From Squalus acanthias (taxonomy: Eukaryota), in contig CM059431.1 in NCBI GenBank assembly GCA_030390025.1, forward strand, positions 120,220,001 through 120,284,000: DNA of 64,000 bases, in the 5' to 3' direction. How positions within the stretch are numbered: the stretch's first letter is position 1; each line of letters begins with the position of its first letter. Below the pieces are notes generated by a model. That model was given only the letters and a program-made list of their open reading frames with translations, had not been told where the DNA came from and did no database searches. Shown here piece by piece: positions 1,861 to 63,700 of the stretch. Both the position numbers and the translations under genes were made by a program.

Positions 1861-2191
1861 ACAGAGCAAAAACATCATGACAAATGCTGTTCTTTTAAAA
1901 TGTACAATTGCAATTATTGTTATAGGTGGCAGCTCTTGTTCCATTTCATGAGGAGAAAGTCAAGGTGCCCAGCTCAGAAAGACTAATGCATCCTTGCAGT
2001 TCACAGAAATCGACTCAATGTTGCCACTCATCCCTGGCATTCAGTCAAAAATGTTTCCAAATGGGGTTGATGAATGTCATTACACATGAACATCTGACTG
2101 TTGTGGTTTTTCACATTGCTCTCTTCACATAAAAACCTCAAAACAAGTAACAAATTGCCATAACCATGCCAGTTTTACCACAGTATATATT

Positions 2192-2956
2192 TGCCCAGAA
2201 ATTCGCCTCTCCGGCTTGCCGCGGGGGTAAGGATCGAGCGCGCTCTTACCTACCGCGCCTGCCGTTGAGTTTTGGGCCCACGGGAACTTCAGCTCCTGGT
2301 CCTGCTCCAAGTGCCGGCGCGCAGTGCTTGCGTGTCCCAGGGGCGTAGTTAGTGCGATGCGTCCCCTGGGATCACGTGGGCCATGGAGAGCCAATGGCAG
2401 CAGACCATCTTTCATTCATAGATTTGACAGGAGACCTGTCAAATCTGTGAATTGAAATCGGCTTCAAAAGAACAGCTAAACTTAAAATATATTTTTTTTA
2501 AAAACCATCACATTTATAAAATAACTATAGTTAAATAAATTAACCACTTTAAACAAAAATTTAAATTTTTGAAAAAATTAAAATACTTTTTAAAAGTGAT
2601 AAAAATAAACTTACCTTTCTTTAAAGTATCTAAAAAAGATAAACCTGTTGAAAAAATTTTAAAATTACACTTAATTAACCACTTACCTTTTTGAAAACGG
2701 GTCTTGCGCCTCCTTTTTAATAGCGTAGTTTCTTCAATACTTACCCTCGCGTAGAAACCTGAAAAAAAATCTAAGTTTGCTGCGTGCGCGCAGCCTCTAC
2801 CGCGCACGCGGTTCACCTAGGAACCGCCCCCTTCATCATACCAGAAGTTCCGGTTTCCCACGCATGCGCAGTGCATGCAGGAAACCGGCACTTCGGGACG
2901 CAGTACGGGTGAGTACGCACTGTGTACTCACCCGGGAAGGGCCGAATTTTTGGCCC
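2192..2956. mobile_element. Non-autonomous Harbinger-like MITE (copy A)
   Basis: Termini gcccagaaattcg / cgaatttttggccc are inverted repeats. Flanks att/aat. A near-colinear second copy lies at 53577-54307. Confidence 0.8.
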
Positions 2957-3650
2957 AATATGTTATTATTGTGCTGTAGAAAAAGTTTACGAGACTTCTC
3001 AGGTCATGTTGGGGTACAATAAAGATTATAGCCAAGATTTTGCGCTGTGATAGAACTCCTTAGAACTGTAGTTCGGCCTGGAGCTGCCTTGTCTATAGGA
3101 TCAACTGCAGTGATGCAAACTCCTTTATCCAGCTGCCAACAATTGACTCAGGATTTGCTGCACATTCTGGGAGTCCATCGCCAGTGGATGGGCGTTCTAA
3201 TCGAACCAGCGCAGACCCCCAGTTGCATTTAACTATTCTAGGTATTCCCATCTCTGATTGAGAGATTTTCTCAAGTGGGAGGGGGGAGGAACGGTGTGCT
3301 GCGGCAGGATTTAAATGCCTGCAACAGCTTAAAGAACCTGGCTTTGTCAAGAGAATGGTCGGAATTTTCTGTACCTGGGCGGTTCGGGGGCGGGCGGTCG
3401 CCGTGGCAGGTCATGACCCCGTTCGTCATTCCATCCCGTTGCTGAGATCGACTTTCCGTTTATGGCGCCTATTAAGGCCACCCTGCGCATTACTCAGCCC
3501 TATTAAATGGTGCGGGTCTGATGACATCATTGATGACGCGTTATCAGCCGGGATATTTAAAGGAGCCACGGCCACATTGCATTTGAAAATTCATCGAGAA
3601 TAGTGAAGCCACTACACTGCACCATTGGAGTGTTCCAAACAGTGCTAGAC

Positions 3651-6000
3651 ATGATTGTACAGCGACAGAGGGCTGCACCCAGGTTCTTCGATGACTCCCT
3701 CCATACGCTTATGGAGGGAGTGAGAGCACGCAGGGAGGTTCTCTTCCCTTCCGATGGGCAGAAGAGATCTCCCTAGCAGACCAAAGGAGCTTGGCTCCAA
3801 ATAGCAGAGGAGGTCAACAGCAGGGATGTTGTCAGGAGGACCTGGCTGCAGTGCCGCAAATGTTTCAATGATCTCATTAGATCAGGAAAGGCGAATACAA
3901 AGCCACACTCAACTTCATCCTGCTGTGCCTCTCACCTGATTGCCATCACTCTGCCTTCCCAACCCTATTCCTGCATATCCTTGCGCACACCAGCATACCT
4001 TGCACGTCCACACATCCCTCTCTCTCTATCTAAATTATCACATCCCCATCTGACTAACCACCCCTCACACTCACCCTCATGCAATCATACCAACTAACAA
4101 CACACAAGGAGGCCACTTGGCATTGCTACCCCACTCCATCATAATCACCCTCTAAAGATGTAACGGATCCATTCTTTACACTCATTCCATCACTCTCACT
4201 CAACCTTCTCTTCTTTCCCTCCTTGCGGGAAAAGGGAGCCCATAATAAGGGGGAGAGAACCGAAGGTGGCCTTCCTTCCTTCGCCACCTTAACAGCAGCA
4301 GAGGAGGTTGCGTTGGAAATATCTGGAGTCGCTGAGCAGCTGGAGGTGAGAGATGGAGAGAGGGGGACATCTCAGCAACCTGGTGACTGAATTACATCTT
4401 ATACAGCCACATGGCATACTGCAGTCACTCGTTTTTTTATATATATACATTTGCGGGATGTGGGTGCATTTATTGCCCATCCCTAATTGCCCTTGAGAAG
4501 GTGGTGGCGAGCCACCTTCTTGAATACAACTGAGTGGTTTGCTCAGCCATTTCAGAGGGCAGTTAAGAGTCAACCACATTGCTGTGGGTCTGGAGTCACA
4601 TTTAGGCCAGACTGGGTAAGGACAGCAGATTTCCTTCCCTAAAGGACATTAGTGAACCAGATGGGTTTTTACAACAATCCGGTAGTTTCATGGTCACCAT
4701 TTCTGATACTAGTATTTTATTCCAGATTTATTTAATTGAATTTAAATTCCCCAGCTTGAACTTCAAACTTGAGTCTCTGGATCATTAGTCCAGACCTCTG
4801 GATTACTAGTCTAGTAACATAACCACTATGCTACTGTACCCTGTAAGGGGACTGATGTCAGCAGCCAGTGAATGGTCATTGTGTGCATAATGGTATCTGT
4901 ACCCATTCTTGATATGACATATCTAACTCATCTCTTTACTCTTGCACAGGTCCTTCACACCACACCCCCCCCCACCACAGCCACCCGCACACCCCACCCA
5001 CCCACCACCCCCCCCCCCGCCCTCCACTGTCCAGGAGGAAGAGGAAGACAGCTCTTCAGAGGAGCTTCCAGCCTCTGAGGGCGCACCATCACCAGACATA
5101 TTTGCACCCAGCACCAGCGCAGATATGCACACCTCGGTGGGTGCCAAGCGAGATAGAGTAGTGTTGTCAGCTGGTGTCTCACAACTCACAAGTGAGCAAG
5201 AGCAGATGGTGGAGACAAGGACAGCAGTGGGGACTCCTCGCCGGAGGGCGCAGGACGCTCCCAGCTCTGCTCAGCTGCAGGCAGACGCTGAGCCTCGGGG
5301 GTCATCCAGAAAGAGGGCGACCCTGGAGGTGCAGGAAGAAGTGCAGGAGCTTTGACAGGTTTTGCGACTGCGATGTCTGCAAATGTGCAGAGAATGGAGG
5401 AGTCCATCTCCAACATGAGCACCACTGTGTCACAGGCGATGGCGACTGCAGGCTCTTCCATGGAAAGGATGGCCACCTGCATGGAGCAGCTAATGCACCA
5501 CTCACATGAGCACATGGTCTCTATGGAGAATAGATGACTATCTATGGAGAATAGATGGCAGACGCTAATAGACCTCCTGTCTAGGAGTGATGTCAATGTA
5601 GATGTGGGTCCTCATGGCCCCACTGCTGTGCAGCTCTCCAGCTCCTTGCTAGCAGGGAAGTTGATTGGCCCATGAGAGGGATGATGGTGAGAGGGGACAT
5701 GGAAGTGGGGGCTCCTCTCAAAGCGCTCACACTTCTCCCCCATTGCCCAACCCCTCAGTCAGAGCCCCAGATAGCTCCTCGGATCCCGATGGCCGAGTCT
5801 GCCCCTGCACAGTCGCAGGAGGAGCAGACTTTGGCGGGCCCATCACAGGCTCCAAAACCCAGAGGACGTCCACCAAAAGTGTCTATGCAGTCACAGCAGG
5901 GAAGAGAGCAGGCTGCCTCTACCTCTGCTGAAGGCACAGGGGTAGCACCTCGTAGAAGCACGCATAAGAGAAAGATGAAACACCATTATATGCACAAGGG
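3651..6000 (+). pseudogene. Harbinger Myb/SANT-like accessory gene, multi-exon, disrupted
   Basis: 3651-3890 translates MIVQRQRAAPRFFDDSLHTLMEGVRARREVLFP..*..WLQIAEEVNSRDVVRRTWLQCRKCFNDL (Myb/SANT-like, NAIF1-type). Further putative exons at ~4229-4381 and ~4950-6000. Confidence 0.8.
4432..4841 (-). mobile_element. Bipartite SINE-like element (tRNA-like LINE head + LINE tail)
   Basis: On the minus strand, 4841-4525 matches LINE 5' region 60776-61077 and 4525-4432 matches LINE tail 63771-63875. Inserted in an intron of the Myb-like gene. Confidence 0.8.
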
Positions 6001-21430: not shown

Positions 21431-22681
21431 AAGGAAAGAGCCTGATCCAAAATGGCGGGTGAAGAATGAAACAATGGGGAACTGGTAGATGTGGCGTATT
21501 TGGATTTTCAGAAGGCCTTCGATAAGGTCCCACACAAGAGGTTGGTGAACAAAATTAGGGCACATGGAATTGGGGGTAATATACTAGCATGGATTGAGAA
21601 TTAGTTAACAGACAGAAAACAAAGAGTAGGGATAAATGGGTCTTTTTCAGGATGGCAGGCTGTGACTAGTGGAGTACCACAAGGATCAGTGCTTGGGCCC
21701 CAGCTATTCACAATCTATATCAATGATTTGGATGAGGGGACTAAATGTAACATTTCCAAATTTGCTGATGATACAAAGCTAGGTGGCAGTGTCAGTTGCG
21801 AAGAGGATGTGAAGAGGCTTCAAGGGGATCTCGACAGGCTCAGTGAGTGGGCGCGAACATGGCAGATGGAATATAATGGATAAATGTGAAGTTATCCACT
21901 TTGGTAGATAAAACAGAAAGGCAGGGTATTTCCTAAATGATGAAAGATTGGGGAATGCAGATGCTCAAAGGGGTGTCCTTGTACATGAGTCGTGAAAGTG
22001 AATGTGTAGGTGCAGCAAGCCATTAGGAAGGCACATGGTATGCTGGCCTTCATTACAAGAGGATGTCAGTACAGGAGTAAAGAAGTCTTACTCCAATTAT
22101 ATAGAGCCTTGGTGAGACCACACCTGGAGTACTGTGTGCAATTTTGGTCTCCTTACCTAAGGAAGGATATACTTGCCATAGAGGGAGTGCAACAAAGGTT
22201 CACGAGATTGATTCCTGGGATGGCGGGACTGTCGTATGAGAAGAGATTGAGTAAACTAGGCCTGTATTCTCTTGAATTCAGAAGAATGAGAGGGATCTCA
22301 TTGAAGCATACAAAATTATTACAGGGCTTGATAGGATGGATGCTGGGAGAATGTTTCCCTTGGCTGAGGAGTCTAGAACCAGGGGCCACAGCCTCAAGGT
22401 AAAGGGTAGGCCATTTAGGACTGAGATGAGAAGAAATTTCTTCACACAGAGGGTGGTGAATCTTTGGAATTCTCTACCCCAGAGGGCTGTGGAGGCTCAG
22501 TCATTGGGTATATTCAAAAAAGAAGTTGATAGATTTCTGACTAGTAAGGGCATCAAGGGATATGGCGATGGGGCCGGTGAACGGAGTTGAGGCAGAGGAT
22601 CAGCCATGATCTTATTGAATGGCAGAGCAGGCTCGAAGGGCCGAATGTCCTACTCCTTCTCCTATTTCTTATGTTCTTATG
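21430..22681 (+). mobile_element. CR1 LINE fragment
   Basis: [34 protein letters not shown] and RPHLEYCVQFWSP, with CR1 3' tail. Confidence 0.92.
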
Positions 22682-33089: not shown

Positions 33090-33655
33090 ACCACAACAAC
33101 AACTTGTATTTATATAGCACCTTTAACATAGTAAAATGTCCCAAGGCGCTGCACAGGAGTATTTTAAGACAAAAAAATTGATACCGATCCACATAATGAT
33201 AAATTAAGGCAGATGACCAAAAGCTTGGTCAAAGAGGTAGGTTTTAAGGAGCGTCTTAAAGGAGGAAAGAGAGGTAGCGAGGTGGACAGGTTTAGGCAGG
33301 GAATTCCAGAGCTTAGGGCCTAGGCAACAGAAGGCACGGCTACCAATGGTTGAGCGATTATAATCAGGATGCTCAAGAGGGCAGAATTAGAGGAGCGCAG
33401 ATATATCGGGGGGGGTTGTCGGGCTGAAGGAGATTACAGAGATAGGAAGGGGCGAGGCCATGGAGGGATTTGAAAACAAGGATGAGAATTTTGAAATCGA
33501 GGTGCTGCTTAACCGGGAGTCAATGTAGGTCAGTGAGCACAGGGGTGATGGGCGAACGGGACTTGGTGCGAGTTAGGACAAGGGCAGCCGAGTTTTGGAT
33601 GACCTCAAGTTTACGTAGGGTGGAATGTGGGAGGCCAGCCAGGAGTGCGTTGGAA
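33090..33655 (-). mobile_element. L2 LINE 3' fragment
   Basis: SNALLAGLPHSTLRKLEVIQNSAALVLTRTKSRSPITPVLTDLH, with tail gctatataaatacaagttgttgttg. Confidence 0.85.
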
Positions 33656-34480
33656 TCTGGATGTGTCAGCTGTATGCTGCAGGGTAACTGCAAGTGTCCT
33701 TGTGCAGATGGTATAGCTCTGCATCTGCCTCTTTGATGATCTTGTAAGATTCTAAAAAACCATAATAAAAGTGCTGCTACCGTGTGGAGATCGAAATTGC
33801 AAATGAATTGTGAAATGGTAACGGACGGACTCAAAATGAAGGAAGTCAGCATGTGTTCCTTTGTCTGTGAGGACACAAAATGGAGGAAGTCAGCAGGAGG
33901 TCTTTGCCTGTAAGGACTCAAAATGGAGATGCTCAGCATATGGTCCTTTGTTTGTAAGACCACATGGACAGGAAGGAGAAACACCAGATGAAGAGGAAGA
34001 CCCACCCCCACACACATCACAGGACCATGAACGTGTCATGCAGAACGAACTCCAATCAGGGAAGGTTGGGTTTGAAACTGACCTATCAGAGGGAGGTAGC
34101 TGGAGATATATGAGGGGGGCTGGCAGAAAGGTACTATAAAGGGATGACCCAGAAGTGGGAAATTCAGAAGAAGAAGACAACAAGAGGCAAAGAGGGCTGT
34201 TTGAAATGGCAGTCGATGTTTTCAGCCTACTACTTTTTCCGGACTGATCACCCTGGGATAAAAGTATGTATGAAAGTCGGACATAGAGCACAGATATTGC
34301 GAAAGGATACTTTTATGTACGGTTGACTTGGGATATGAATTGACAAGAATTAGTATATAAGTTGCTGGGAAGTACTTTTATGTATGGAACTGTGAGCATA
34401 TGGAGTGCCAAGGATTCGCCTAAATTGCAAGGATACTTTTATGTCCGTTTAGCTCATCTAAGTAGCGTATGAGTTGCTGG

Positions 34481-35928
34481 TGTAATGGAATAAGCCATAT
34501 TCCAAGAAATACATCATCCTATGAACAGATTTTGATATTATTAATATAAGACATGCTGAGTTTAAAAGTCTGGAAAGCCTCGGCGACACAGGCTGCAAAC
34601 ACAATACAGGCTTCTGAGATAAGATGAAGTGTTAACAAAAGCTGTAAAACACCATAGGCTTTGAAATGGGAGATGGTTGTAAGCACAAAAACAATGCCCC
34701 TATTGAAGCAAACCATTGGCGCTTCCAGAAGGTCTGGAGTTTGGGAGAAACACAATGGAATGACCCAAGTAAAGTGTTAAAATCTAACACTTCGAACAAG
34801 AAACACAGAATATTAAAGCAACCATATGCCTTCATAAAGTAACATCAAATAAGACAGGAAGCACAATTAAATATGCAACCAATTTAAATAGCTAAGAAAA
34901 CAAGAAAACACCACAGATGAAGCGTTTTTAATTTACAAGTTGTAAAATATACCTACAGAGAGGCTTTGAAGATATATATCAATAGATGACACCAAGCAAT
35001 TACATTATGTTTGTATTGAACTTGGAACACCACGGAGTCACGATGTCTGGCTTACAAGCAGTTAAGTGATATTAAGAGTTCAATAGAAAGATTTCCTAGG
35101 AATGGCATCAAATAGATAAATCGATAATAACCATAAAAATGATAAGTTTTTGAAACACCTAAAGGTTGAGACAGAATTCTAAAAGTTGGCAGCTGAAATA
35201 ACAGTAAGAATAGAAAAGAATTCAATAAAGAATCACCAGAGATAATTAGCTTACATCAGCAGGAAACTTCAAAGAAAATACCACTAAAAAAAGGTATAAA
35301 AATTGAGCTTTTCAGATAGAGAGTCAGAAGTCGCTGGAAGGGCAAGCGTTTCTCAACTTCACAGGCACTCTCTGTAAGTTTTTAACTCTGAGTCTCGGGT
35401 AATCAAGGTATTTGATTTTGGTGGATATTCTGGATTAAGAAACAAGTAGAAGTGTGGAAATGTAACAAAGTTAAGATTTGAGAATAAGGATCTCTGATAA
35501 GAAATGTAAGCTATTTGTATTTTGAATGGTTAAAGTTGCGATTGCCATACCAGCTGTTAACTAGATGTTGGTTCTTTAATAAATTTATATATTTTTAAAA
35601 TTGTCTCAAAGAGTATTTCTGTATCAATCTTGCAAACTCAATTTCTGTACACTCTTCAGTGAGGAGTTGCAGAATTCTTGGGGGTTTTCCGGACCCTCAT
35701 AATATTCGGAAGGTTACAGTCTAGTTAAACTTGTTAAAAGTGCTATCCGGAGGACGGTAACATCTTCAGGCCATTTCTTTCCTTTAGGGAGAGGTAGTCT
35801 GACCTTTAGACACAATTAAGCATCTCCAGGATTCGGCTACCGCTAACTTTAGTTAAAGGTGAACGTCTGGGGAATACGCCTGATCTGGGGTAGCCCGAAA
35901 AAGGCTAGGACATGTAATTATCCCTTCA
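34481..35928 (+). repeat. 5' LTR (1448 bp)
   Basis: TG..CA, direct repeat of 39828-41262. TATAAAA 35295, AATAAA 35578. Confidence 0.95.
35295..35379 (+). promoter_or_regulatory. LTR TATA box and putative major splice donor in R
   Basis: TATAAAA at 35295-35301 and GTAAGT at 35374-35379. Both are conserved in the 3' LTR. Confidence 0.6.
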
Positions 35929-35930
35929 GT

Positions 35931-35948
35931 TGACGCCCAACGTGTGTG
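35931..35948 (+). promoter_or_regulatory. Primer binding site, tRNA-Lys1,2-like
   Basis: TGACGCCCAACGTGTGTG versus TGGCGCCCAACGTGGGGC (14/18; 13 of first 14), 2 nt after the LTR CA. Confidence 0.85.
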
Positions 35949-36223
35949 TTGATGAGTTGATACAGAACCTATACTTATAGTTATATCTATATCCATCATG
36001 TAGATTGTAAAGTATAGAAGGAGTGTTTACCGACAATGGTACTAAGACCCAGATTTAAGTTTCTAGAGACGACAAGTCCCTGATCAGGCCTTGTAGAACT
36101 TAAATCAGAACTCCCTCAACATACCATTGAGGTCTAGAAATTTCTTATAAAGTTCAGATTAAAACCTAACCGAGGTTCGGTCCTGACGAAATTAAACCCT
36201 AACCGAGGTTAGGTCCTGAAGAA

Positions 36224-36808
36224 ATGGCAAACCCTGTCGGAATTGGCCAAGTCTTTTTAATAGAAAATTTAAACGATTGCTTTATTCAGGGAAATAATCC
36301 TATCCCTGTACCTCCACAAAACCAAGGGATAATTTTTGAAATAGAAGGCTTTGATGCCGAAGAAGCCGTTAGAACTCATGGCATGATTAATGTTGATCCC
36401 CAGAACCAGGGGATACCGAATATCCAGTGGGATACTCAAACAAATACTCCAGATCCAATAAATTCCTTAATGATAAGGTGCACACCTGCACAATTGGGAG
36501 GCCTAATGAATGGTGCCCAACAATGTGGTGGCAACCATGGCCGAATAGCAGGACCCGGAGCAGCCTATGCTCCTGGGGGCCATGGATTCTGGTTAAGGTG
36601 GCAAACTCCTGAAGAAATAAATGTCAAGAATCTTCGAGAAAACTATAGACAGCTTAGAATCCATTATAATAAACGGACCGACAAAACCCCTCAGGGATCT
36701 GGAAAACATGAAACCCCCAAGAGGGAGGAACATAAATCAGTTAAAATAATTAAAGACAAAGAAGCAAATAAAAATCAGGATTCTGAGGATGAACAATCCC
36801 AGGATTGA
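36224..36808 (+). CDS. gag: Truncated foamy-like Gag (N-terminal domain joined to a basic/acidic tail), 194 aa open ORF
   Basis: Gag position after the PBS/leader with a real ATG. DPINSLMIRCTPAQLGGLMN..GPGAAYAPG resembles PFV Gag NPHTMFMISGPLAELQLAFQ..GPLANGHYVQG. Too short to include capsid. Confidence 0.7.
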   Translation: MANPVGIGQVFLIENLNDCFIQGNNPIPVPPQNQGIIFEIEGFDAEEAVRTHGMINVDPQNQGIPNIQWDTQTNTPDPINSLMIRCTPAQLGGLMNGAQQCGGNHGRIAGPGAAYAPGGHGFWLRWQTPEEINVKNLRENYRQLRIHYNKRTDKTPQGSGKHETPKREEHKSVKIIKDKEANKNQDSEDEQSQD

Positions 36809-36817
36809 AGGCCTGGC

Positions 36818-37296
36818 ATGCAGCCAGGGCCTCTTAAATTCCCCTATGCCTTGGCAACCTTGCCCACAAACACACAAGTGAAAGCTCAATTTGTAAAAGA
36901 CCATTAGGGGGATTTACACAAGACAAAACCAAGATAATTAATTTTTACAAAATACCTATTACTATATATGGAATCACAGTGACCCTAGATGTAGGACTGG
37001 TACCACAATTGGCTTATTTCCTCCTTATAGGACAAATAAACATGAAACATTACCTTAAAATATCAACCAGACCAGTACAAGCATCCACATGGATGACAGG
37101 GAAAAACATGTTCGAACACAGCTTGATTGAACTTGCCTAGAGCGGGGAGGCAAAGACCTCCTTGAGCAATTCATTAATAAATACTATCCTTATCTACTAT
37201 GCCATCCAAATCAATGTGGAAAGATAGAGCATCTCCCCATCATGGAGGATGATGATACGGAGGAGGGAATCAGATAAATACCTATGAGACCGCTTA
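36818..37296 (+). pseudogene. pol: Pol protease remnant and start of RT; RT core deleted
   Basis: Manual translation gives MQPGPLKFPYALATLPTNTQVKAQ, YKIPITIYGITVTLDVGLVPQLAYFLLIGQINM (retropepsin C-half) and LLEQFINKYYPYLLCHPNQCGKI (cf. PFV LFVKYDNLWQHWENQVGHR). No DSG/DTG or YxDD seen. Confidence 0.7.
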
Positions 37297-37302
37297 TAGA
37301 AT

Positions 37303-37576
37303 GTGTGGGTTAGGTTGATTTGGCTATGATAAATTGACCCTTAGTGTTAGGGGGGATTAAATATGTGGGGTTATGGGGATAGGATGGGATATGTTAGGGG
37401 GAATTAAATACGTGGGGTTACGGGGGTAGGGTGGGATATGTGTACTGTGGGGATTAAAGCAGGGACAGGGTACTGGATTTGGATGATCAGCCATGATCGT
37501 ATTGAATGGCGGAGCAGGCTCGACGGGCCGAATGGCCTACTCCTGCTCCTAGATTCTATGTTTCTATGTTTCTATG
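37303..37576 (+). mobile_element. 5'-truncated HE1-like SINE inserted in pol
   Basis: Matches 22893-22985 (ggttaggttgatttggctatgataaattgacccttagtgttagggg) plus HER1-type tail (tttctatg)n. TAGAAT flanks both ends. Confidence 0.8.
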
Positions 37577-37578
37577 TA

Positions 37579-37929
37579 GAATACCATCAAGTTATTTACT
37601 GTGATGGAACGTCAATGACGATGAAAAAAGAGACATCCCAACAATCCTCAGCTGGGATAGGGATAGTAGTAGGGACTTTTCGTGATTCCTAATCTTTTTA
37701 TACAGAAGAATTTCTGTCTATACTCCTTGGCCATAAGACAGCGCAATATGCTGAAGCCGCAGCATTACGGTATGCTTTAGAGAAAGCAGACTTTATTAAA
37801 CCCACATTGTGGGAAGAAATTCTTCGTTCGAGGATGGAGAAACAGAATTGTCAGGTGATTCATGTAAACGGGCATACGACTGGAATAGTACACTCAAGAG
37901 GAACAAGCCTTGCTGATGAACAAGCAAAA
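37579..37929 (+). pseudogene. pol: Pol RNase H remnant (foamy-like)
   Basis: VIYCDGTS..SAGIGIVV..*..LLGHKTAQYAEAAALRYALEKA..IHVNGH..HSRGTSLADEQAK versus PFV FYTDGSA..NAGMGIV..PLGNHTAQMAEIAAVEFACKKA..QHEKGH..HTEGNALADKLAT. The central DS segment is missing. Confidence 0.85.
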
Positions 37930-37979
37930 TGTTCAGTCTGCATGATACCCCCTCGAGAGCAGGCCTGCCAATGTTAGTG

Positions 37980-39199
37980 TAATCACTAAGGCAGAACGGG
38001 CAGCTTATCAGGATGAGGAACTGATTCAGCTATTAGAAACAATAAAAGAGAACCACCAGAATATCCACCAAAGTACTTTTACTCGGAAACCCTACGGGTA
38101 TTGTACTAGTTAAGTTGCCCAAGGGAAACCGAGAAGTACCCACGAACCACAAACGAGAACAGCTTGTAAAAGAAGCTCATGAGGGCATAAGTTAAGTACA
38201 TTGTGGTGCCAGAACAACATTCTGCAAATTGACTCTCTTATATTGGTGGCCAGGCATGCTTAGAGCCTGTAAAACAGACATGGCAAATTGTGAGCCATGC
38301 TATTCTACCAATAAGTCATCACTAAATTAAGCCACCACCATTGGCTCCTGTGAAAGCTGATGAGCCAATGGGAAAATTATTTATTGACTTTATTGGACCA
38401 CTTTCCCCATCTTTGCGATATAGACATGTTCTCGTTTGTGTGGATGGATGCATTTCCTTCTGCTGGCTGGTCCCCACAAAAACTGTTTTGGATAACGCAC
38501 TTGCCAGGGCTATTTCTGATATAATTACTGTAGCTGGTGCACCCAAAATCTTACACTCCACTAAAGGCGGAGCCTTTGTATCCAAGGTCTTCAAAGCCTA
38601 CTGTGAACAAAGGAGGATTGGGTTAGAGCACAGCACGCCACATCATCCGCAATCAGCAGGGCTGGTGGAATGTAAAAACCGGGAAGTAATAAAGCTATTG
38701 GTCAAACTGTTGAGAATCAGGGGGAATAAGTGGACCACCATCATTCCGGAAGTACAGCTATCACTCAATAATGTGCCCGCATCTGCATCAGGGACAGTGT
38801 CCCCTAAAACTCCATATTATCTGATGTATGGGGTTGAGATGCATACACCGCTTACCCATAGTTATTTTATTGCCCCTACACACTTTGAGTCCTTGACCCG
38901 ACAGCGACAGTTAGAGAAAAAAGTAACAGAGGAGATTCATTGAATTGATCAGAGGATAATGGAAGCAAATAGGTCGAAAAATTGACAAAAAAAGCATGGC
39001 AACCCATAGTAGAGAATGGATACAGGAAATGAAGTTCGAGCAGAAATCTGGTTTAAGACCGAAGTGGAAAAAACCTGTTCAAATACATTCTGTTATTAAT
39101 GAAAGTACAGTTCAAATACATGTTAACCAACTGAATGGCAAGCATATTCTTAAAACTGTCTCCATAGACAATATCAAAAGATGTCCTGCAGGATACTGA
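37980..39199 (+). pseudogene. pol: Pol integrase (NED, HHCC, core, CTD), frameshifted
   Basis: DEELIQLL..YPPKYFY; AH..H..YWWPGM..CEPC; KLFIDFIGPLSPS..STPHHPQSAGLVECKN; LRPKWKKP..KTVSIDNIK. All parallel PFV integrase. The second catalytic D appears lost (HSTKGG vs HSDQG). Confidence 0.92.
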
Positions 39200-39817
39200 A
39201 AAGGAGGACCAATACAAGGTGCAGTCGTATACTGTCTTTTAAGACCCAGCTTGGAGCACGACACAGGAAATGGATGCGATCGAATTACTGACGATGGGAA
39301 GTCAGAAGATGTCGTCGGCTCTTCTACACGTTGCTTGGCAACGCATCAGGATTTGGATTTGCGAAAAGCAACAACCAAAACAAGGAAAGATCAATAAATT
39401 ACTTTAACGAAGGAGGTAGACGTCGCGGAAGAAGAAGGAATCAACTGAGTGCCTGGCAAGACCTTTACGAAAACAAGCATCTGTACACACGCCGGATCGA
39501 AGGAAAAGCGTGTCAAGCTTCAACTAGTTTCAAATGACGTCTCCTTGACTCGTATGAAGAACTCACCTCTACAGAACGTACATCTGCCAATTGGACATTC
39601 TAAGTACATGTTGTTTCGCTCATTACATGACTATGTACTTATCATCCTTTTAAATTGTGTACAATTTAAAATAAGGCAAAACATTGTCCTAGGATGATTC
39701 AAAAGGAATTTTCATGTAGCACATGATTGTGCATCTCGTGAACTTAATATGCTATTGTAACTTTATGAGTATCATTGACCAAACTCTGCCCTGATGTTAT
39801 AAGCTCATCTTTTGGTC

Positions 39818-39827
39818 AAGAGGGGGG
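39818..39827 (+). promoter_or_regulatory. 3' polypurine tract
   Basis: AAGAGGGGGG directly abutting the TG of the 3' LTR. Confidence 0.85.
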
Positions 39828-41262
39828 TGTAATGGAATAAGCCATATTCCAAGAAATACATCATCCTATGAACAGATTTTGATATTATTAATACATGATA
39901 TACTGGGTTTAAAAGTCTGGAAAGCCTCGGCGACACAGGCTGCAAACACAATACAGGCTTCTGAGATAAGGTGAAGTGTTAACAAAAGCTGTAAAATACC
40001 ACAAGCTTTGAACTGGGAGATGGTTGTAAAGACAAAAACAATGCCCCTATTGAAGCAAACCATTGGCGCTTCCAGAAGGTCTGGAGTTTGGGAGAAACAC
40101 AATGGAATGACCCAAGTAAAGTGTTATAAGCTAACACTTCGAACAAGAAACACAGAACATTAAAACAACCAAAGAAACATCAAATAAGACAGGAAACATG
40201 ATTAAATATGCAACGAATTGAAATAGCTAAGAAAACAAGCAAACACCATAGATGAAGCATTTTTAATTTACAAGTTGTAAAATATACCTACAAAGAGGCT
40301 TTGAAGATATAATACCAATAGATGACACCAAGCAATTACATTGTGTTTGTATTGAACTTGGAACACCACGGAGTCACGATGTCTGGCTTACAAGCAGTTA
40401 AGTGATATTAAGAATTCAATAGAAAGATTTCCTAAGAATGGCATCAAATAGATAAATCGATAATAACCATAAAAATGATAAGTTTTTGAAACACCTAAAG
40501 TTGAGACAGAAATCTAAAAGTTGGCAGCTGAAATAACAGTAAGAATAGAAAAGAATTCAATAATGAATCACCAGAGATAATTAGCTTACATCAGCAGGAA
40601 ACTTCAAAGAAAATACCACTAAAAAAAGGTATAAAAATAGAGCTTTTCAGATAGAGAGTCAGAAGTCGCTGGAAGGGCAAGCGTTTCTCAACTTCACAGG
40701 CACGCTCTGTAAGTCTTTAACTCTGAGTCTCGGGTAATCAAGGTATTTGATTTTGGTGGATATTCTGGATTAAGAAATAAGTAGAAGTGTGGAAATGTAA
40801 CAAAGTTAAGATTTGAGAATAAGTATCTCTGACAAGAAATGTAAGCTATTTGTATTTTGAACGGTTTAAGTTGCAATTGACATAAAGCTGTTAACTAGAT
40901 GTTGGTTCTTTAATAAATTTATATATTTTTAAAATTGTCTCAAAGAGTATTTCTGTATCAATCTCGCAAACTCAATTTCTGTACACTCTTCAGGGAGGAG
41001 TTGCAGAATTCTGGGGGGTTTTCCGGACCCTCATAATATTCGAAAGGTTACAGTCTAGTTAAACTTGTTAAAAGTGCTATCCGGAGGACGGTAACATCTT
41101 CAGGCCATTTCTTTCCTTTAGGGAGAGGTAGTCTGACCTTTAGACACAATTAAGCATCTCTAGGATTCGGCTACCGCTAACTTTAGTTGAAGGTGAACGT
41201 CTGGGGAATACGCCTGATCTGGGGTAGCCCGAAAAGGGCTAGGACTTGTAATTATCCCTTCA
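39828..41262 (+). repeat. 3' LTR (1435 bp)
   Basis: Direct repeat of 34481-35928, 13 nt shorter overall. TATAAAA 40630, AATAAA 40912. Confidence 0.95.
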
Positions 41263-42639
41263 CTGGGAGGTAATTTTATGTACGAAACTGTGAGCATATT
41301 TATTGCCGGAGCGAATTGATACGGTAAATTGCGAGCATATTTATTGCCAGAGCGAATTAACAAACTGTGGGCACAGACATTGCCGAGAGCGAATCTATGT
41401 ACGCTTGAATTTTAAACTGTAGTGTGAATAAAGATAATTTTATATATAACAAACTTATCTGTCATTGTTACGCTTATTCGCAATTCTCGATGTCCAAACA
41501 GTAGTAAGAGAAAGTCCTACAATCTGGACCCTGTGCAGACTGATTTATGCTAGGCAAATGTGCCAGGGCCTGCTGATGTTGTTGGTGGAATCTTGGCAGG
41601 TGTGGTCAATTCAGTGTAAACTTGGTGTTTTTCACCCTGAAATGCCTCTTTAATGAAGTGCCACTGAAAAAAATATGACATACTATGATTGGGGTGCTTT
41701 CGAGGAAGGACTGCATCCAACATAATGGATAGTCAGGCATTCATACATCTTGTCCCTCATCTCCTGTGAACTGAAAGCAGCATCGGATTCGTGGGTCCAG
41801 CTTCCTTTGGGAGGGCCTTTCGTGGGCAGGACAATCGCACAACACAAAATTCACCGCTGTAAAAATGGCAACAGGTGCTTACGTGTCTGGTTGGGGACGC
41901 ATTCCCCATTTCTTTATTTTTAACCCCCTCCCGCCTCCCCCGACCTGCCCCTGCCCACCATGGGGGGGGTGGTGGGGGAGTTAATGTCAAGGCCAATATC
42001 ATTGAAGATCTTTGTATTAATGATTACATTTACTGATGTTAATTCAGCTCCATCAAAAGAGAAGAGAATGTCAAAGTGAATCAAAACTGTTCAGAAGTTT
42101 TGATTTTTTTTTCAAAGGTGTACTGATAAAATTACATATTTAAATAACATGTTAATGTTCATTTTTTCTAAAAAAAAAAGTAAGAATGAGAATGATTGCA
42201 AAACAAAATATGTCCTTTTCAAAAACAAATTGTTTGATTAACATCTACCTTTGATTGAATACTGTGTGTGTGTATGGAATGCAAGTCGTTCAAAATGTTA
42301 TATTTTAGTGCTGTGAAACTCATCAAAATGTTAATGTGTAATATCATTTTTGAAGGCAATCAGTATTATTGTTGGTTGTCTACAATATAATTGCTTCAAC
42401 CAAACTTCATGAGTGAATGGGAATTGTTCACTACTCTTTCCTACATCAGTTACAAACTAAGCCTGACCTTCCATTGTTCCAGGTGATATGAAGCTTTTCC
42501 TACATTTTAGTTAATGAGGGAGTGTGAAGCAGAGTCTTGGGTTTCAATTATAATCCTCCTCGCCCAGCGAGAATGGTGTGTGGTAGAAGATCAGGCCAAA
42601 TCCACTTACTGTCCTGAGGCCACACCGATCCCGCTCGGC

Positions 42640-43050
42640 GACAACAGCCTACATTTATATAACGCATTTGACAAAGCAAAACGTCCCAAGGACCTTAACA
42701 AGAACAATATCAATAAAAAAAATTTGACACCGAGCCACAGAAGGAGATTTCAGGACAAATGACAAAAGCTTGGTCAAAGAGGTAGGTTTTAAGGAGCATC
42801 TTAAAGGAGGAGAGAGAGGTAGAAAGGCAGAGAGGTTTAGGGAGGGAATTCCAGAGCGTAGGGCCAAGGCAGCTGAAGGCACGGCTATCAATGGTGGAGC
42901 GATTAAAATTGAGGATGCACAAGAGGCCAGAATTGGAGGAGTGCAGAGATCTCGAAGGCTTGTAAGAGTGAAGGAGGTTACTGAGATAGGGAGGGGTGAG
43001 GACATGGAGGGATTTGAAAACAAGGATGAGGATTTTACATTTGATTTTAA
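42640..43050 (-). mobile_element. L2 LINE 3' fragment
   Basis: KILILVFKSLHVLTPPYLSNLL..RAFSCLGPTLWNSLP..FKMLLKTYLF. Homologous to 33090-33490. Confidence 0.85.
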
Positions 43051-50010: not shown

Positions 50011-50813
50011 AGTTACAGGGGATCGCTAACAAGGAAAGGGAATACACATTAAATGGTAGGACACTGAGTAGTGTAGAGGAACAAAGGGACCTTGGATTGC
50101 ATGTCCACAAATCCCTGAAGGTAGCAGGCCAGGTAGATAAGGTGGTTAAGAAGGCATACGGAATGCTTGCCTTTATTAGCCGTGGCATAGAATACAAGAG
50201 TAAGGGGGTTAAGTTTCAACTGTATAAAACACTAGTTAGGCCTCAGCTAGAGTACTGCGTGTAGTTCTGGTCACCACATTACAGGAAAGATGTGATTGCA
50301 CTAGAGAGGGTACAGAGGAGATTTACAAGGATGTTGTCGGGAGTAGAGAATCTTAGCTATGAGGAAAGACTGGATAGGCTGGGTTTGTTTTCCTTGGAAC
50401 AGAGGAGGCTGAGGGGAGACCTTATTGAGGTGTATAAAATTATGAAGGGCCTAGATAAAGTGGATAGAAAGGACCTATTTCCCTTAGCAGAGAGGTCAAA
50501 ATCCAAGGAGCACAGATTTAAAGTAATTGCTGGAAGGTTTAGAGGGGATTTGAGAGGAAATTTCTTCACCCAGAGGGTTGTGGGGGTCTGGAACTCACTG
50601 CCTGAAAGGGTGGTAGAGGCAGAAACCCTCATCACATTTAAAAAGTACTTGGATGTACACTTGGGATGCTCTAACCTGCAGGGCTACGGACCAAGAGTTG
50701 GGAAGCGGGATTAGGCTGGATAGCTCTTCGTTGGCCGGCGTGGACACGATGGGCCGAAATGGCCTCCTTCCATGCTGTAACTTTCTATGATGCTATGATT
50801 CTGTGATTCTATG
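50010..50813 (+). mobile_element. CR1 LINE 3' fragment
   Basis: LERVQRRFTRML..LEQRRLRGDLIEVYKIMKG, with a short-repeat (ctatgat-type) tail. Confidence 0.9.
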
Positions 50814-54829: not shown

Positions 54830-56720
54830 ATGGGGACTCTACTTGTAGTTCCCCTCGCTCTCGAGTATCTTCAGGAGAGGGAGCGGAGGCAGCAAAGAAG
54901 AGGAGAAGATGCGTGCAGAGGGAGGAGGAGGAGGAGGGCTAGGAGAGCTCTCAACAGGAGGCCTTACCCACCTAGGGTCTTCAGAGAGCACTTTTCTTAT
55001 AGCCACTTAAGCGAGGAGCATAGGAACTTAGCAACATAGGAACAGGAGTAGGCCATTTAGCCCCTCGAGCCTGTTCTGCCATTCAATGAGATCATGGCTG
55101 ATCTGCAACCTAACACCATATACCTGCCTTTGGCCCATATCCCTTGATACCTTTGGTTAACAAAATCTATCAATCTCAGATTTAAAATTAACAATTGATC
55201 TAGCATCAATTACCGTTTGCGGAAATGATTTCCAAACTTCTACCACCCTTTCTGTGTAGAAGTGTTTCCTAGTTTCACTCTTGAAAGGCCTGTCTCTAAT
55301 TTTTTACACTATGCCCCCTAGTCCTAGACTTCCCAACGAGCGGAAACAGTTTCTCTCTAACCATCCAATCTGTTCCCCTTAAAATCTTGAAAACTTCGAT
55401 CAAATCACCCCTTAATCTTCTAAATTCCAGGGAATACAACCCTTATTTGTGTAATCTCTGCTTGTAATTTAACCCTTGGAGTCCGAGTATCATTCTGGTA
55501 AACCGACGCTGCACTCCCTCCAATGCCAAAATATCCTTCCTAAGGTGTGATGCCCAGAACTGCTCACAGTACTCCAGGTGTGGTCTAACCAGGGCTTTGT
55601 ATAGCTGCAGCATAACTTCTACCCCCTTGTATACTAGTCCTCAAGATATAAAGGCCAGCATTCCATTAGCCTTTTTGATTATTTTCTGCACCTGTTCATG
55701 ACATTTTCATGACCTATGTACCTAGACCCCCAAGTCTCTTTGGACCTCCACTGTTTTTAGCTTTTCACCATTTAGAAATTACCCCAGTCTATCCTTCAGC
55801 ACTGTATTAAATGGTGGTCTCAGAACTCTGCCACCTCCTGCAGCCTGAGTGCAGGGTGCCCACGGGTATTCCAGTGTCAGTCATCTCTTTGTGGCCCTCA
55901 ATTTCTATGCCAGCAGATCCTTCCAGTCTGCAGCAGGAGACATAGCCAACATCTGACAGTTTGCCATCCATCGCTGCATCCGGGAGGTCACAGAGGTTCT
56001 CTACACCAGCAAAAGGGATTACGTTTTCATCTCTCTGAGCAGAGAGAAGCAGGACGAGCATGCATGTGGCTTTGCCAGTATAGCGGGCTTCCCCATAGTG
56101 CAGGGCGCCATCGACTGCACACACGTGGCTTTGCAGACACTGCATAATAATCCTGAGATCTTCCGTAACTGCAAAGGCTTCCACTCACATAATGTGCAGT
56201 GGTTGTGCGACCATGCCCAGCGATTCCTGATGGTCAATGCCCTCTATCCTGGCAGCAGTCATCCTGCGTCAGTCCGGTGTGCCAACAATTTTCCAGCCAC
56301 CACATCAAACTCAAGGGTGGCTGCACGGAGACAAGGGCTATTCACTCTCCACCTGACTCCCCTCCGCAACCTCACCACTCGTGCGCAGCACTCATATAAT
56401 GAGAGCCGTGCCTCCACCAGGAACATCATCGAGCAGACTATAGGGCTACTGAAGCAACGGTTCTGCTGCCTTGACCGTTCGGGAGGAGCCCTCCAGTACT
56501 CGGTGGAGCGGGTGTCCCATTTCGTCGTGATCTGCTGCATGCTTCACAACGTGGCCATCATGAGGGCACAGCCCTTGCCAACAGGGATGGCGGGACCACC
56601 TCAGGAATGAGGATGAGGGAGAGGAGGAGGAGGAGGAGGAATGGAGCAGGCAGGCAGCCAATCCGCCTTCCGGACGGGCTGTCCGTGAAAGCCTCATCAG
56701 ACTCCGATTCCAATGACTGA
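54830..56720 (+). pseudogene. Harbinger DDE transposase interrupted by CR1
   Basis: MGTLLVVP..RRPYPPRVFREHFSY, then QGAIDCTHVAL..NCKGFHSHNVQ..YNESRASTRNIIEQTIGLLKQRFCCLD..CCMLHN. Confidence 0.88.
55018..55797 (-). mobile_element. CR1 LINE 3' fragment
   Basis: Same antisense CR1 tail and body as 62-830. Confidence 0.85.
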
Positions 56721-60775: not shown

Positions 60776-63700
60776 ACGGTAGCGTACTGGTGATGTCACT
60801 GGGCTAGTAATCCAAAGGCCTGGACTAATGATCCAGAGACGTGAGTTCAAATCCCACCACGGCAACTGGGGAATTTAAATTCAGTTAATTAAATAAAAAT
60901 GGAATAATTACTATTATTAGTAATGGTAACCATGAAACTGTCATAAAATCCCATCAGGTACACTAATGTGCTTTAGGGCAGGAAATCTGCCGTCCTTACC
61001 TCTGTGACTCCAGACCCACAGCAATGTGGTTGACTCTTAACTGCCCTCTGAAATGGCCTACAAGTCACTCAGTTGTAACTAACCGCTGCGAAACATAATA
61101 AGAATGAAACCGGACAAACCACCCGGCATCGACCTCAGCACCGGCTACGGACATGGCAACGGCACACCCAGCCCAGTCGACCCTTCAAAGTCCTCCTCAC
61201 CAACAGCCTGACATAGTCATACTCACAGAATCATACCTTTCAGCCAATGTCCCAAACTCCTCCATCACCATCCCTGGGTATGTCCTGTCCCACCAGCAGG
61301 ACAGACCCACCAGGGTGGGCAGCACAGTGGTATACAGTCGGGAAGGAGTAGCCCTGGAAGTCCTCAACATTGACTCTGGACCGCATGAAGTCTCATGGCT
61401 TCAGGTCAAGCATGGGCAAGGAAACCTCCTGCTGATTACTACCGACCGCCCTCCCTCAGCTGATGAATCAGTACTCCTCCACATTGAACACCACTTGGAA
61501 GAAGCACTGAGAGTAGCAAGGGCATGGAATGTACTCTGGGTGGGAGACTGCAATGTCCATCACCAAGAGTGGCTTGGTAGCACCACTACTGACCGAGCTG
61601 GCCAAGTCCTGAAGGACATAGCTAGTCTGGGCCTGCGACAGGTGGTGAAAGAACCAGCACGAGGGAAAAACATACTTGACCTCGTCCTCACCAATCTACC
61701 TGTCGCAGATGCATCTGTCCATGACAGTATTGGTAGCAGTGACCACCACACAGTCATTGTGGAGACGAAGTCCCGTCTTCACACTGAGGACACCCTTCAT
61801 CGTGTTGTGTGCCACTACCACCGTGCTCAATGGGATAGATTCAGAACAGATTTAGCAGCTCAAAACTGGGCATCCATGTGGGGCAGTAGCAGAATTGTAT
61901 TCCACCACAATCTGTAAACCTCATGGCCCGGCATATCCCTCACTCTACCATTACCACCAACCCTGGTTCAATAAGGAGTGTAGAAGAGCATGCCGGGAGC
62001 AGCACCAGGCGAACCTAAAAATTAGGTGTCAACCTGGGGAAGCTGCAACACAGGACTGCATGCATGCTAAAAAGCAGAAGCAGCATGCCATAGACAGGTC
62101 TAAGCGATCCCACAATCAACACATCAGATCAAAGCTCTGCAGACCTGCCACATCCAGTCATGAATGGTGATGGACCATTAAACAACTAGCGGGGGGGGGG
62201 GGAGAGGAGGAGGCTCCATGAATATTCCCATCCTCAATGATGGTGGAGCCCAGCACGTGAGTGCAAAAGACAAGGCTGAAGCATTTGCAACCAGAAGTGC
62301 CAAGTGGATGATCCATATCGGCCTACTCCTGAGGTCCCCACTATCACATAAGCCAGTCTTCAGCCAATTCGATTCACTCCACGTGATATCAAGAAATGGC
62401 TGAGCGCACTGGATACAGCAAAGGCTATGGGCCCCGACCACATCCCGGCTATCGTGCTGAAGACTTGTGCTCCAGAACTAGCCACACATCTAGCCAAGCT
62501 GTTCCAGTGCAGCTACAACACTGGCATCTATCCGACAATGTGGAAAACGGCCCAGGTATGTCCTGTCCACAAAAAGCAGGACAATGATCGCCCCATTAGT
62601 CTACTCTCAATCATCATCAAAGTGATGGAAGGTGTCATCGACGGCGCTATCAAGTGGCACTTACTCACCAATAACCTGCTCACTGATGCCCAGTTTGGGA
62701 TCCCCCAAGACCACTCGGCTCCCGACCTCATTACAGCCTTGGTCCAAACATGAACAAAGGAGCTAAATTCCAGACGTGAGGTGAGAGTGACTGCCCTTGA
62801 CATCAAGGCAGCATTTGACCAAGTGTGACATCAAGGAGCCCTAGTAAAACTGGATTCAGGGGGAAAACGCTCCGCTGGCTGGAGTCATACCTAGCACAAA
62901 GGAAGATGGTTGTGGTGATTGAAGGTCAATCATCACAGCCCCAGGACATCGCTGCAGGAGTTCCACAAGGCAGTGTCCTAGTCCCAACCATCTTCAGCTG
63001 CTTCATCAATTACCTTCCATTCGCAACTCCTCAGATGATGAAGCAGTCCATGCCCGCATGCAACAAGACCTGGATGACGTTCAGGCTTGAGCTGATAAGT
63101 GGCAGGTAACATTCGCGCCACAGAAGTGCCAGGCAATGACTATTTCCAAAAAGCGAGAGTCTAACCACCTCCCCATGACATTCAACGGCATTACCATCGC
63201 CGAATCCCCCACCATCAACATCCTGGGGGTCACCATTGACCAGAAACTTAACTGGACCAGCCACATCAATACTGTGGCAACAAGAGCAGGTCAGAGGCTA
63301 GGTATTCTGTGGCTAGTGTCTCACCTCCTGACTCCCCAAAGCCTTTCCACCATCTACAAGGCACTAGTAAGGAGTGTGATGGAATACTCTCCACTTGCCT
63401 GGATGAGTGCAGCTGCAACAACACTCAAGAAGCTCGACACCATCCAGAACAAAGCAGCCCGCTTGATTGGCACCCCATCCACCACCTTAAACATTCACTC
63501 CCTCCACCACTGACACACCGTGGCTGCAGTGTACCCTCGACAAGATGCACTGCAGCAACTCGCCAATGCTTCTTCGGCAGCACCTCTTCCACCTTGAAGG
63601 ACAAGGGCAGCAGGCGCATGGGAACACCACCACCTCCAAGTTCCCCTCCAAGTCACACACCATCCTGACTTAGAAGTATATCGCTGATCCTTCATTGTCA

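Follow-up and report, generated by a model that had tools for sequence, protein, structure and literature searches.

A provirus of the foamy-virus-like type lies in a 64-kb window on contig CM059431.1 of the shark Squalus acanthias, the window being the whole stretch of DNA that was analyzed (64,000 nucleotides). The provirus consists of two long terminal repeats (LTRs) around an internal span of about 3.9 kb, which holds the remains of gag, protease (PR) and pol coding regions (Table 1). Its relatives were sought throughout the 3.71-Gb assembly. No host gene was recognized in the 64 kb, whose content is apparently repeats only, and the whole window was without an Rfam match at the gathering threshold. 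The window copy is an ordinary dead fossil of an endogenous retrovirus (ERV), and the interest lies in the family to which it belongs rather than in this single copy.

The ends of the provirus were found by a repeat search, which gave five collinear direct-repeat blocks with a spacing of 5,334-5,347 nt and 93-98% identity, spanning 34479-35851 and 39826-41185. Both LTRs start with TGTAATGG and end with CCCTTCA. Their alignment contains 51 mismatches over 1434 aligned sites (31 transitions and 20 transversions) and four indel events, for a Kimura two-parameter (K2P) distance of 0.0365. The primer-binding site (PBS) reads TGACGCCCAACGTGTGTG, lies two bases 3' of the 5' LTR and is complementary at 14 of 18 positions to the 3' end, with CCA added, of the host's own tRNA-Lys(CTT). 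In a sister copy (L018) the match is 15 of 18, with the first 14 positions contiguous. The host tRNA-Lys(CTT) genes were located as 240 exact matches to a 17-nt 3'-end motif; two loci were confirmed with ARAGORN and one was read. An earlier note on this DNA, made from its letters alone, had proposed two LTRs of about 1.44 kb, a CTGG target-site duplication, a Lys1,2-like PBS and a polypurine tract. All of these are present where it had placed them, and its manual LTR counts, 14 mismatches over the first 320 columns and 8 over the last 348, proved exactly right.

The surrounding DNA provides a check on these boundaries. The provirus sits in a host tandem repeat with a unit of about 65 nt (family D8 just upstream, 84%), which runs at 34300-34480 and 41263-41400. 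When both flanks are joined with one CTGG, the host unit is restored and closely resembles the neighboring unit. This means that the provirus boundaries and the 4-bp duplication are not due to chance, and the rebuilt unit is an internal empty-site control for the insertion.

Table 1. Features of the provirus, with positions counted from the first nucleotide of the window (RT, reverse transcriptase; IN, integrase; PFV, prototype foamy virus; ORF, open reading frame; SINE, short interspersed nuclear element; L-numbers denote related loci in the same assembly).
Feature	Position	Strand	Details and basis
Target-site duplication, 5' copy, CTGG	34477..34480	+	Read directly; identical to 41263-41266
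5' LTR, 1448 nt, TG...CA	34481..35928	+	96.4% identical to the 3' LTR
Primer-binding site, tRNA-Lys(CTT) (Lys1,2 type)	35931..35948	+	One G>A change at position 3
gag remnant ORF (ATG at 36224; in-frame TGA at 36806-36808)	36224..36808	+	977-nt central deletion, junction near 36672-36685
Protease remnant, frame shifted	36809..37226	+	blastn against L063 and translations; a 69-nt deletion near 36890 removes DTGA
RT-deletion junction	37213..37238	+	1,267 nt of RT core gone between about 37227 and 37228
SINE-like host repeat insertion (about 274 nt)	37297..37582	-	TAGAAT 6-bp duplication at 37297-37302 and 37577-37582
RNase H remnant	37583..37977	+	109-nt internal deletion near 37806 (against L045); Pfam RNase_H
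IN N-terminal extension and zinc-binding remnants, frameshifted	37946..38325	+	ORF 37946-38113; homology with L045
IN catalytic core, 205 open codons	38326..38943	+	PFV IN match; second catalytic Asp replaced
IN C-terminal SH3-like domain, other frame	38960..39199	+	Pfam SH3_11, 1.7e-6, 28.5 bits, cut-off 25
env-deletion scar	39458..39641	+	182 nt against 3,463 nt in env-bearing L064 (blastn)
Polypurine tract AAGAGGGGGG	39818..39827	+	Abuts the 3' LTR; read directly
3' LTR, 1435 nt, TG...CA	39828..41262	+	Repeat search, end reading and re-alignment
Target-site duplication, 3' copy, CTGG	41263..41266	+	Read directly

The internal region has decayed in several ways. When it is compared by blastn with a fuller relative (loci L063 and L045, described below), four deletions are seen, which took away the center of gag, the active site of PR, the core of RT and a part of RNase H. 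The stretch missing from gag is the one that matches the Pfam family Gag_FV_central in L063. In IN, the second catalytic aspartate is lost, with HSTKGG in place of the HSDQGG of another relative (L071), and only about 190 nt separate the env scar from the 3' LTR. The order gag-pro-RNase H-IN proposed in the earlier note is right, with PR surviving as a remnant, and the RT core is missing from it. The motifs it had listed as IDYIGPLPPS, LGNHTAQMAE and TVSIDNLK are present as IDFIGPLSPS, LGHKTAQYAE and TVSIDNIK; the first two have foamy virus or PFV counterparts in the PDB alignments, and none was seen there for TVSIDNIK. Among nine forward ORFs of the window, three matched Pfam (RNase_H, rve and SH3_11), and the gag ORF matched no Pfam family.

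A SINE-like host repeat has also been inserted into the copy. The body of the insert (37303-37576) has a word depth of 100-1000 times that of neighboring bins in four sequencing runs from four organisms, and it showed no tRNA-like head by ARAGORN and no Rfam match. The insertion is present in 0 of 20 informative sister copies; here and below, the sister copies come from 32 distinct other loci that were classified, which were chosen as best matches and are thus biased to close relatives, and only informative loci are counted. The window copy has no coding function now and no likely function of its own. Its LTRs may carry promoter signals still.

The affinity of the family to foamy viruses is strongly suggested by comparisons of its predicted proteins. 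In the window copy, the IN core matched PFV integrase structures in the PDB with E values of 2.9e-43 to 8.7e-41, and the next group, human immunodeficiency virus (HIV) type 1 IN, began at 2.3e-6. By manual count, 79 of 191 aligned columns (about 41%) are identical to PFV IN. The RNase H remnant gave only weak PDB matches (7e-4 to 2e-3), all of them to foamy Pr125Pol and PFV RNase H. The fuller relative gives more. L063 matches Gag_FV_central (8.4e-13, 48.7 bits, cut-off 30) and the foamy protease family Spuma_A9PTase (5.4e-7, 30.4 bits, cut-off 21), and L063 and L045 also match RVT_1 (2.1e-23), RNase_H (1e-18), Integrase_H2C2, rve and SH3_11. The RT of the fuller relative scored 2.2e-85 with foamy PR-RT, compared to 3.9e-24 with Ty3, about 3.5e-22 with structures of the type of xenotropic murine leukemia virus-related virus and murine leukemia virus (MLV) and about 1e-5 with HIV, and the YVDD motif is present in the RT of the family.

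The IN of L045 aligns to PFV IN residues 9-303 (3.6e-65, compared to 8e-9 for Ty3 and 7e-5 for HIV), and this alignment covers the N-terminal extension domain (NED), the zinc-binding domain and the core. The NED was one of the features read into the window copy by the earlier note; it aligns in L045, and the window holds frameshifted remnants of it only. The C-terminus of IN is the retroviral SH3 domain and not the chromodomain or GPY/F type of Ty3/Gypsy. Ty3/Gypsy, MLV-like and lentivirus-like identities were considered and ruled out by the gaps in the RT and IN scores. The foamy-like identity that had been proposed is thus borne out by IN, RT, PR, Gag and the Env of an older relative, all of which match foamy references far above other retroelements. 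Broader searches added little: a protein homologue search with a 712-aa Pol fragment returned four weak matches (plant and metagenome retrotransposons) and no foamy virus or vertebrate Pol, a search of viral contigs found no relative, and a protein-cluster search gave only generic chordate integrase/RNase H clusters (0.87-0.91).

The fuller form of the element shows what the window copy has lost. Loci L063 and L045 are two separately read parts of one fuller copy, and statements about full length rest on two or three copies in all (the fuller copy, one pol region and one env-bearing locus). With about 6.05 kb between the LTRs and about 8.9 kb in total, this form carries gag and pro-pol and no env. 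The longest open pol frame in the family has 1,153 codons; it belongs to one copy, in which it begins inside PR, after a one-base frame shift. The 3' LTR of L045 (3009-3597, contig C3544) is 73% identical to the first 550 nt or so of the window LTR (34481-35029), compared to about 88% for pol, which indicates at least two subfamilies with different U3 regions.

An envelope gene is found in older relatives. The family Foamy_virus_ENV (PF03408) gave 11 matches above the cut-off, at about seven places in the genome, and 0 in 14 control genomes. In one of them (L064) the order is RNase H, IN and then three collinear Foamy_virus_ENV pieces, and the pol is about 83% identical to that of the window. 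An ORF downstream of env in this locus (296-730) matched no Pfam family. In the close relatives env is gone: 24 of 24 informative sister loci are contiguous at the env scar. A solo LTR of the window family, 93% identical, sits inside the older env-bearing pol (L009/L064, contig C6, about 123.318-123.326 Mb). The env-less family must therefore have been active after the older env-bearing element had integrated.

The family is large. An LTR search gave 40 further high-scoring matches with 88-95% identity among those scored, and in a search with the IN core 150 of 150 scored matches had 82-92% amino-acid identity. Copy numbers were taken from exact words: a conserved LTR 22-mer has 5,962 matches genome-wide and a conserved IN 22-mer has 425, the window included in both cases, and the reversed-pattern controls gave 0. 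A first look had returned 13,109 IN candidates, which would be misleading as a copy number. The earlier note had called such elements rare, which does not hold for this genome. The excess of about 5,960 LTR words over 425 IN words also means that solo LTRs far outnumber proviruses. At 18 LTR loci examined, 17 with both ends, 11 were solo LTRs with perfect 4-bp duplications; three more match at three of the four duplication bases, two show no duplication and one is a 5' LTR followed by a PBS. By a rough estimate (5,962 x 1.45 kb) the LTRs make up about 8.6 Mb, or about 0.2% of the assembly. Five near-identical IN copies (L024, L026, L027, L036 and L043) lie within 0.7 Mb on contig C1 (98.9-99.6 Mb), and four of the five carry the same single TGA inside the match.

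The deletions of the window copy are shared by many of these relatives. A 26-mer across the RT junction is found at 67 loci on 29 contigs and a 28-mer across the gag junction at 39 loci on 26 contigs, window included, with 0 for the reversed-pattern controls. At 21 loci both junctions occur 542-764 nt apart on one strand. The RT-junction word is absent from the fuller copies L063, L045 and L048. In seven copies the gag breakpoint is identical base for base; the short motif at which it sits is similar to the sequence found at either end of the missing part. Among the classified loci, 18 of 20 are contiguous across the RT junction, the RNase H deletion is present in 17 and absent in 7, and the PR deletion is present in 8 and absent in 9. 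The gag deletion is present in 6, and 10 more loci break at the junction, as expected if their gag is whole. Several loci carry intermediate forms, in which one, two or three deletions are present. Because the RT and gag junctions recur at 67 and 39 loci, the deleted form most likely spread non-autonomously.

The window copy is, with a probability of about 0.78, a dead and internally deleted foamy-like ERV (FLERV), a member of an env-less family whose deleted derivative was mobilized in trans. The ancestor would have been a virus of the foamy type, equipped with gag and pro-pol as well as a foamy Env. In one lineage about 3.3 kb of env would have disappeared, and the remaining gag-pro-pol element, about 8.9 kb long, would have multiplied into several hundred internal copies and thousands of LTRs, most of them solo. 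Template switching at short homologies would then probably have produced a derivative shrunken still further, which lacked the gag center, the active site of PR, the core of RT and a portion of RNase H. It kept, on this account, the LTRs, the Lys PBS, the leader and 5' gag, the 3' pol and the polypurine tract. Foamy virus vectors need two cis-acting regions, the second of which is in pol, and by analogy the retained leader with 5' gag and the retained 3' pol would correspond to these regions. Gag and Pol made by fuller copies may have acted in trans to package, reverse-transcribe and integrate the deleted RNA, most likely within germ-line cells and with no extracellular phase. The insertion in the window, with its 4-bp duplication, would have followed some tens of millions of years ago, and later the SINE-like insertion and point mutations, including the one that cost IN a catalytic aspartate.

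Several points weigh against this account. In the window copy itself, the rve match (3.6e-7, 30.8 bits) is below the cut-off of 32.6 and the RNase_H match (4.1e-4, 21 bits) is below the cut-off of 25.8, six of the nine ORFs tested are without any Pfam match, and gag, PR and env were assigned through relatives. The placement with foamy viruses comes from Pfam models and gaps in PDB E values, not from a tree with named references, and ERV-L and the lokiretroviruses are without a representative in the Pfam or PDB comparison. Mobilization in trans is argued solely from the shared junctions, and some of the copies may be segmental duplicates; the cluster on contig C1 looks like the segmental or tandem duplication of a region with one copy. 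Copies exist with both the gag and the RT deletion, with either one and with neither, which complicates a simple stepwise history and suggests recombination between co-packaged variants or recurrent deletion. Lastly, gag and pro-pol share one frame in the copies read, unlike those of true foamy viruses.

One could instead consider repeated infection of the germ line by enveloped particles, with Env supplied in trans by env-bearing relatives or by an exogenous helper. The 11 Foamy_virus_ENV matches at about seven places, L064 among them, show that such relatives exist in the same genome, and helper-virus complementation in trans has been proposed for fish foamy-like ERVs in the accessible part of one paper (PMC5512871). 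However, env is missing in all 24 informative close copies, and the only env locus examined is older, with its pol at about 83% identity and interrupted by a solo LTR of the window family. Moreover, 11 Env matches stand against 425 IN and 5,962 LTR word matches, and this pattern resembles the one reported for env-less "superspreader" ERVs. Repeated reinfection is therefore judged unlikely, at something like one chance in five.

It is also conceivable that the deletions arose after integration at a single locus and that segmental duplication of host DNA, and no mobilization, carried the junctions to the other loci. Segmental duplication does occur here, as the five near-identical IN matches on contig C1 illustrate, but the RT junction is spread over 29 contigs and the gag junction over 26, and the copies differ mutually by about 6-8%. 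Apart from the window copy, L018 is the only RT-deleted copy whose 5' flank could be read, and this flank differs from that of the window. Intermediate forms with one, two or three deletions at several loci are hard to fit in as well; we regard this explanation as improbable. That the element is not foamy-like at all but an ERV-L/class III element, a lokiretrovirus, an epsilonretrovirus or Ty3/Gypsy, with a superficial resemblance, is the least credible explanation: it could draw on the single frame of gag and pro-pol with one TGA or none, as in gamma- and epsilonretroviruses, on the ERV-L-like lack of env in most copies and on a placement made without a tree, but Gag, PR and Env pass the cut-offs of foamy Pfam models, foamy structures outscore those of Ty3, MLV-type viruses or HIV by 40 to 60 orders of magnitude for RT and IN, and the NED, the Lys(CTT) PBS and the 4-bp duplication all speak for a foamy relative.

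The way in which this family of env-less foamy-like elements made its Pol deserves separate attention. True foamy viruses express Pol independently of Gag, from its own spliced mRNA and its own start codon. In gamma- and epsilonretroviruses, gag and pro-pol are in one frame, and the stop codon between them is read through. The gag-pro boundary of the shark family reads ...QSQD-TGA-RPGTQPGPLEF in 16 of 19 distinct copies (the window counted), with TGG in two and a frameshift in one. Genome-wide, a 21-mer across the boundary has 111 exact matches in its TGA version and 31 in its TGG version, and the fuller copy L063/L045 has TGG. In the two copies with an intact PR (L063 and L071) there is no in-frame ATG between the gag-end codon and the DTGA of the protease. 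With a shared frame and no ATG, the separate-Pol arrangement of foamy viruses does not fit, and the simplest reading of the sequences would be UGA readthrough or an uninterrupted Gag-Pro-Pol. In the window copy and in L053, and not in the TGG copy L063, folding predicts a hairpin of 9 bp located 3 nt beyond the gag TGA. The hairpin has no statistical support, as the 75-nt segments are no more stable in their folding than shuffled sequences (z -0.5 to -1.35).

A wider scenario can be put forward tentatively, with the odds somewhat against it. The shark foamy-like lineage may have made Gag-Pro-Pol through in-frame UGA readthrough or an uninterrupted frame and, after the loss of env, may have become a retrotransposon-like family of several hundred copies with parasitic deletion derivatives. 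If this is true, Gag-independent expression of Pol would be a later invention within the foamy lineage, and the family would be the largest foamy-like expansion described in the literature searched.

Some of these features are familiar from other systems. Exogenous foamy viruses such as PFV are the best PDB match for IN, RT and RNase H, and they share with the shark family the Gag central domain, the A9 protease and (in its older copies) the Env family, the NED of IN, YVDD, a tRNA-Lys1,2 PBS, a 4-bp duplication and LTRs over 1.4 kb long. Unlike them, the shark family is endogenous and multicopy, has lost env in its amplified lineage and has gag and pro-pol in one frame with a TGA or nothing between, and the window copy is without room for tas or bet between the env scar and the LTR. 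The protease motif is also different, DTGA in the shark family compared to DSGA in PFV. The env-less ERV-L and MuERV-L and the "superspreader" families are similar in having gag-pro-pol only, a high copy number, an excess of solo LTRs and presumed intracellular retrotransposition. ERV-L elements use a Leu PBS and carry a dUTPase, whereas the shark family has foamy-specific features in Gag, PR and the NED of IN, and a Lys PBS. In the mouse, ETn/MusD elements are non-autonomous ERV deletion derivatives mobilized in trans. The shark derivative resembles this type in being internally deleted, in keeping its LTRs, PBS, polypurine tract and packaging regions and in showing identical breakpoints at many loci, but it still holds RNase H and IN sequence derived from pol.

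Foamy-like ERVs of cartilaginous fish have already been published. CmiFLERV of the elephant shark, which is a chimaera and not a shark, belongs to the foamy-like ERVs that are defined by RT/Pol phylogeny in the accessible part of PMC5512871; that part states no copy numbers for it and no layout of its LTRs, gag or env. The accessible part of PMC10699275 describes ERV-Spuma.0-Sca of the small-spotted catshark, a spuma-like ERV with 293 elements, an oldest LTR age of about 36 million years (My), a 9,220-nt consensus and 866-nt LTRs that start with TGTTCTGG...; it reports that neither Gag nor Env domains were found and that the element groups with the FLERVs of ray-finned fish. The catshark and Squalus families are both spuma-like ERVs of sharks with hundreds of fragments. 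The Squalus LTRs, however, are 1,448 nt long and start with TGTAATGG, and Gag_FV_central, the A9 protease and Foamy_virus_ENV were detected in the family. Identity of the two was considered and rejected on LTR length, LTR start and domains, as far as that part of the catshark description goes (the first 400 letters were compared by eye). Han 2015 (PMC4422223), in the part accessible, has epsilon- and snakehead-like ERVs only. No published shark family with the features of the one in Squalus was found in the literature searched, with Repbase, subscription journals and the supplements of PMC5512871 outside its scope.

The age of the window insertion depends on the rate assumed. From the K2P distance of the two LTRs it would be 36 My at 5e-10 per site per year, the rate assumed for the catshark in the accessible part of PMC10699275, and 83 My at 2.2e-10, assumed for the elephant shark in that of PMC4422223; at 1e-9, a rate not taken from these papers, it would be 18 My. 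The earlier view of the insertion as "not very ancient" has to be qualified accordingly, to a range of about 18 to 83 My. In a public run index, 20 runs from eight organisms hold 16-33% of the sampled words of the stretch; none of the 20 was listed as RNA, which has no bearing on expression. Four runs from four organisms each cover the full set of 30 bins and contain 1,301 to 4,674 pieces with an identity of at least 99%, so the family is shared by several organisms.

No retroviral lineage has been dated as older than the foamy viruses, whose early history in the sea is documented by few fossils. The cartilaginous-fish record found so far, in sources seen in part, consists of chimaera Pol fragments and a catshark consensus without recognizable Gag or Env. 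The Squalus family adds a shark relative with a foamy Gag, a foamy protease, the NED of IN and, in older copies, a foamy Env, which are better characters for rooting the foamy tree. It also indicates that a foamy-like virus whose env is gone can still reach thousands of LTRs, and that such a virus can give rise to non-autonomous deletion derivatives. The shared frame of gag and pol bears on when the foamy way of making Pol arose.

A few observations concern the host. The earlier note had taken the genome to be shark-like, and the last coding exon of ATP1B1 agrees with this, as its product is identical at 80 of 80 positions to PDB chains 2zxe_B and 3a3y_B, which we take to be the shark rectal-gland Na,K-ATPase; the next PDB match, the bovine chain 4xe5_B, has several mismatches. 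The beta-subunit genes were located by Pfam Na_K-ATPase, and the exon of the paralogue was uninformative. The 3'-end motifs of tRNA-Lys(CTT) are clustered on contigs C21 (6.7-11.0 Mb) and C26 (39.4-44.3 Mb), many about 1.8 kb apart, which suggests large tandem arrays of tRNA genes.

The rest of the window holds other repeats. A separate tandem repeat with a 44-nt unit lies at 33827-33964. Two 147-nt direct repeats, 90% alike and 9.5 kb apart (33218-33364 and 42763-42909), lie on either side of the provirus region; they probably belong to another interspersed repeat, present there in two copies, and not to the ERV. Fragments of the long interspersed nuclear element (LINE) type with long open frames are seen at 155-1018 (-), 22010-22402 (+), 50265-50714 (+) and 61108-63513 (+). 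Judged by eye, they are RT and endonuclease pieces, and the motif ...LEYC.QFWSP.(Y/H)(L/Y)RKD... is common to three of them. A 217-codon frame at 55957-56610 (+), also judged by eye, resembles a remnant of a DDE transposase of the Harbinger/PIF type.

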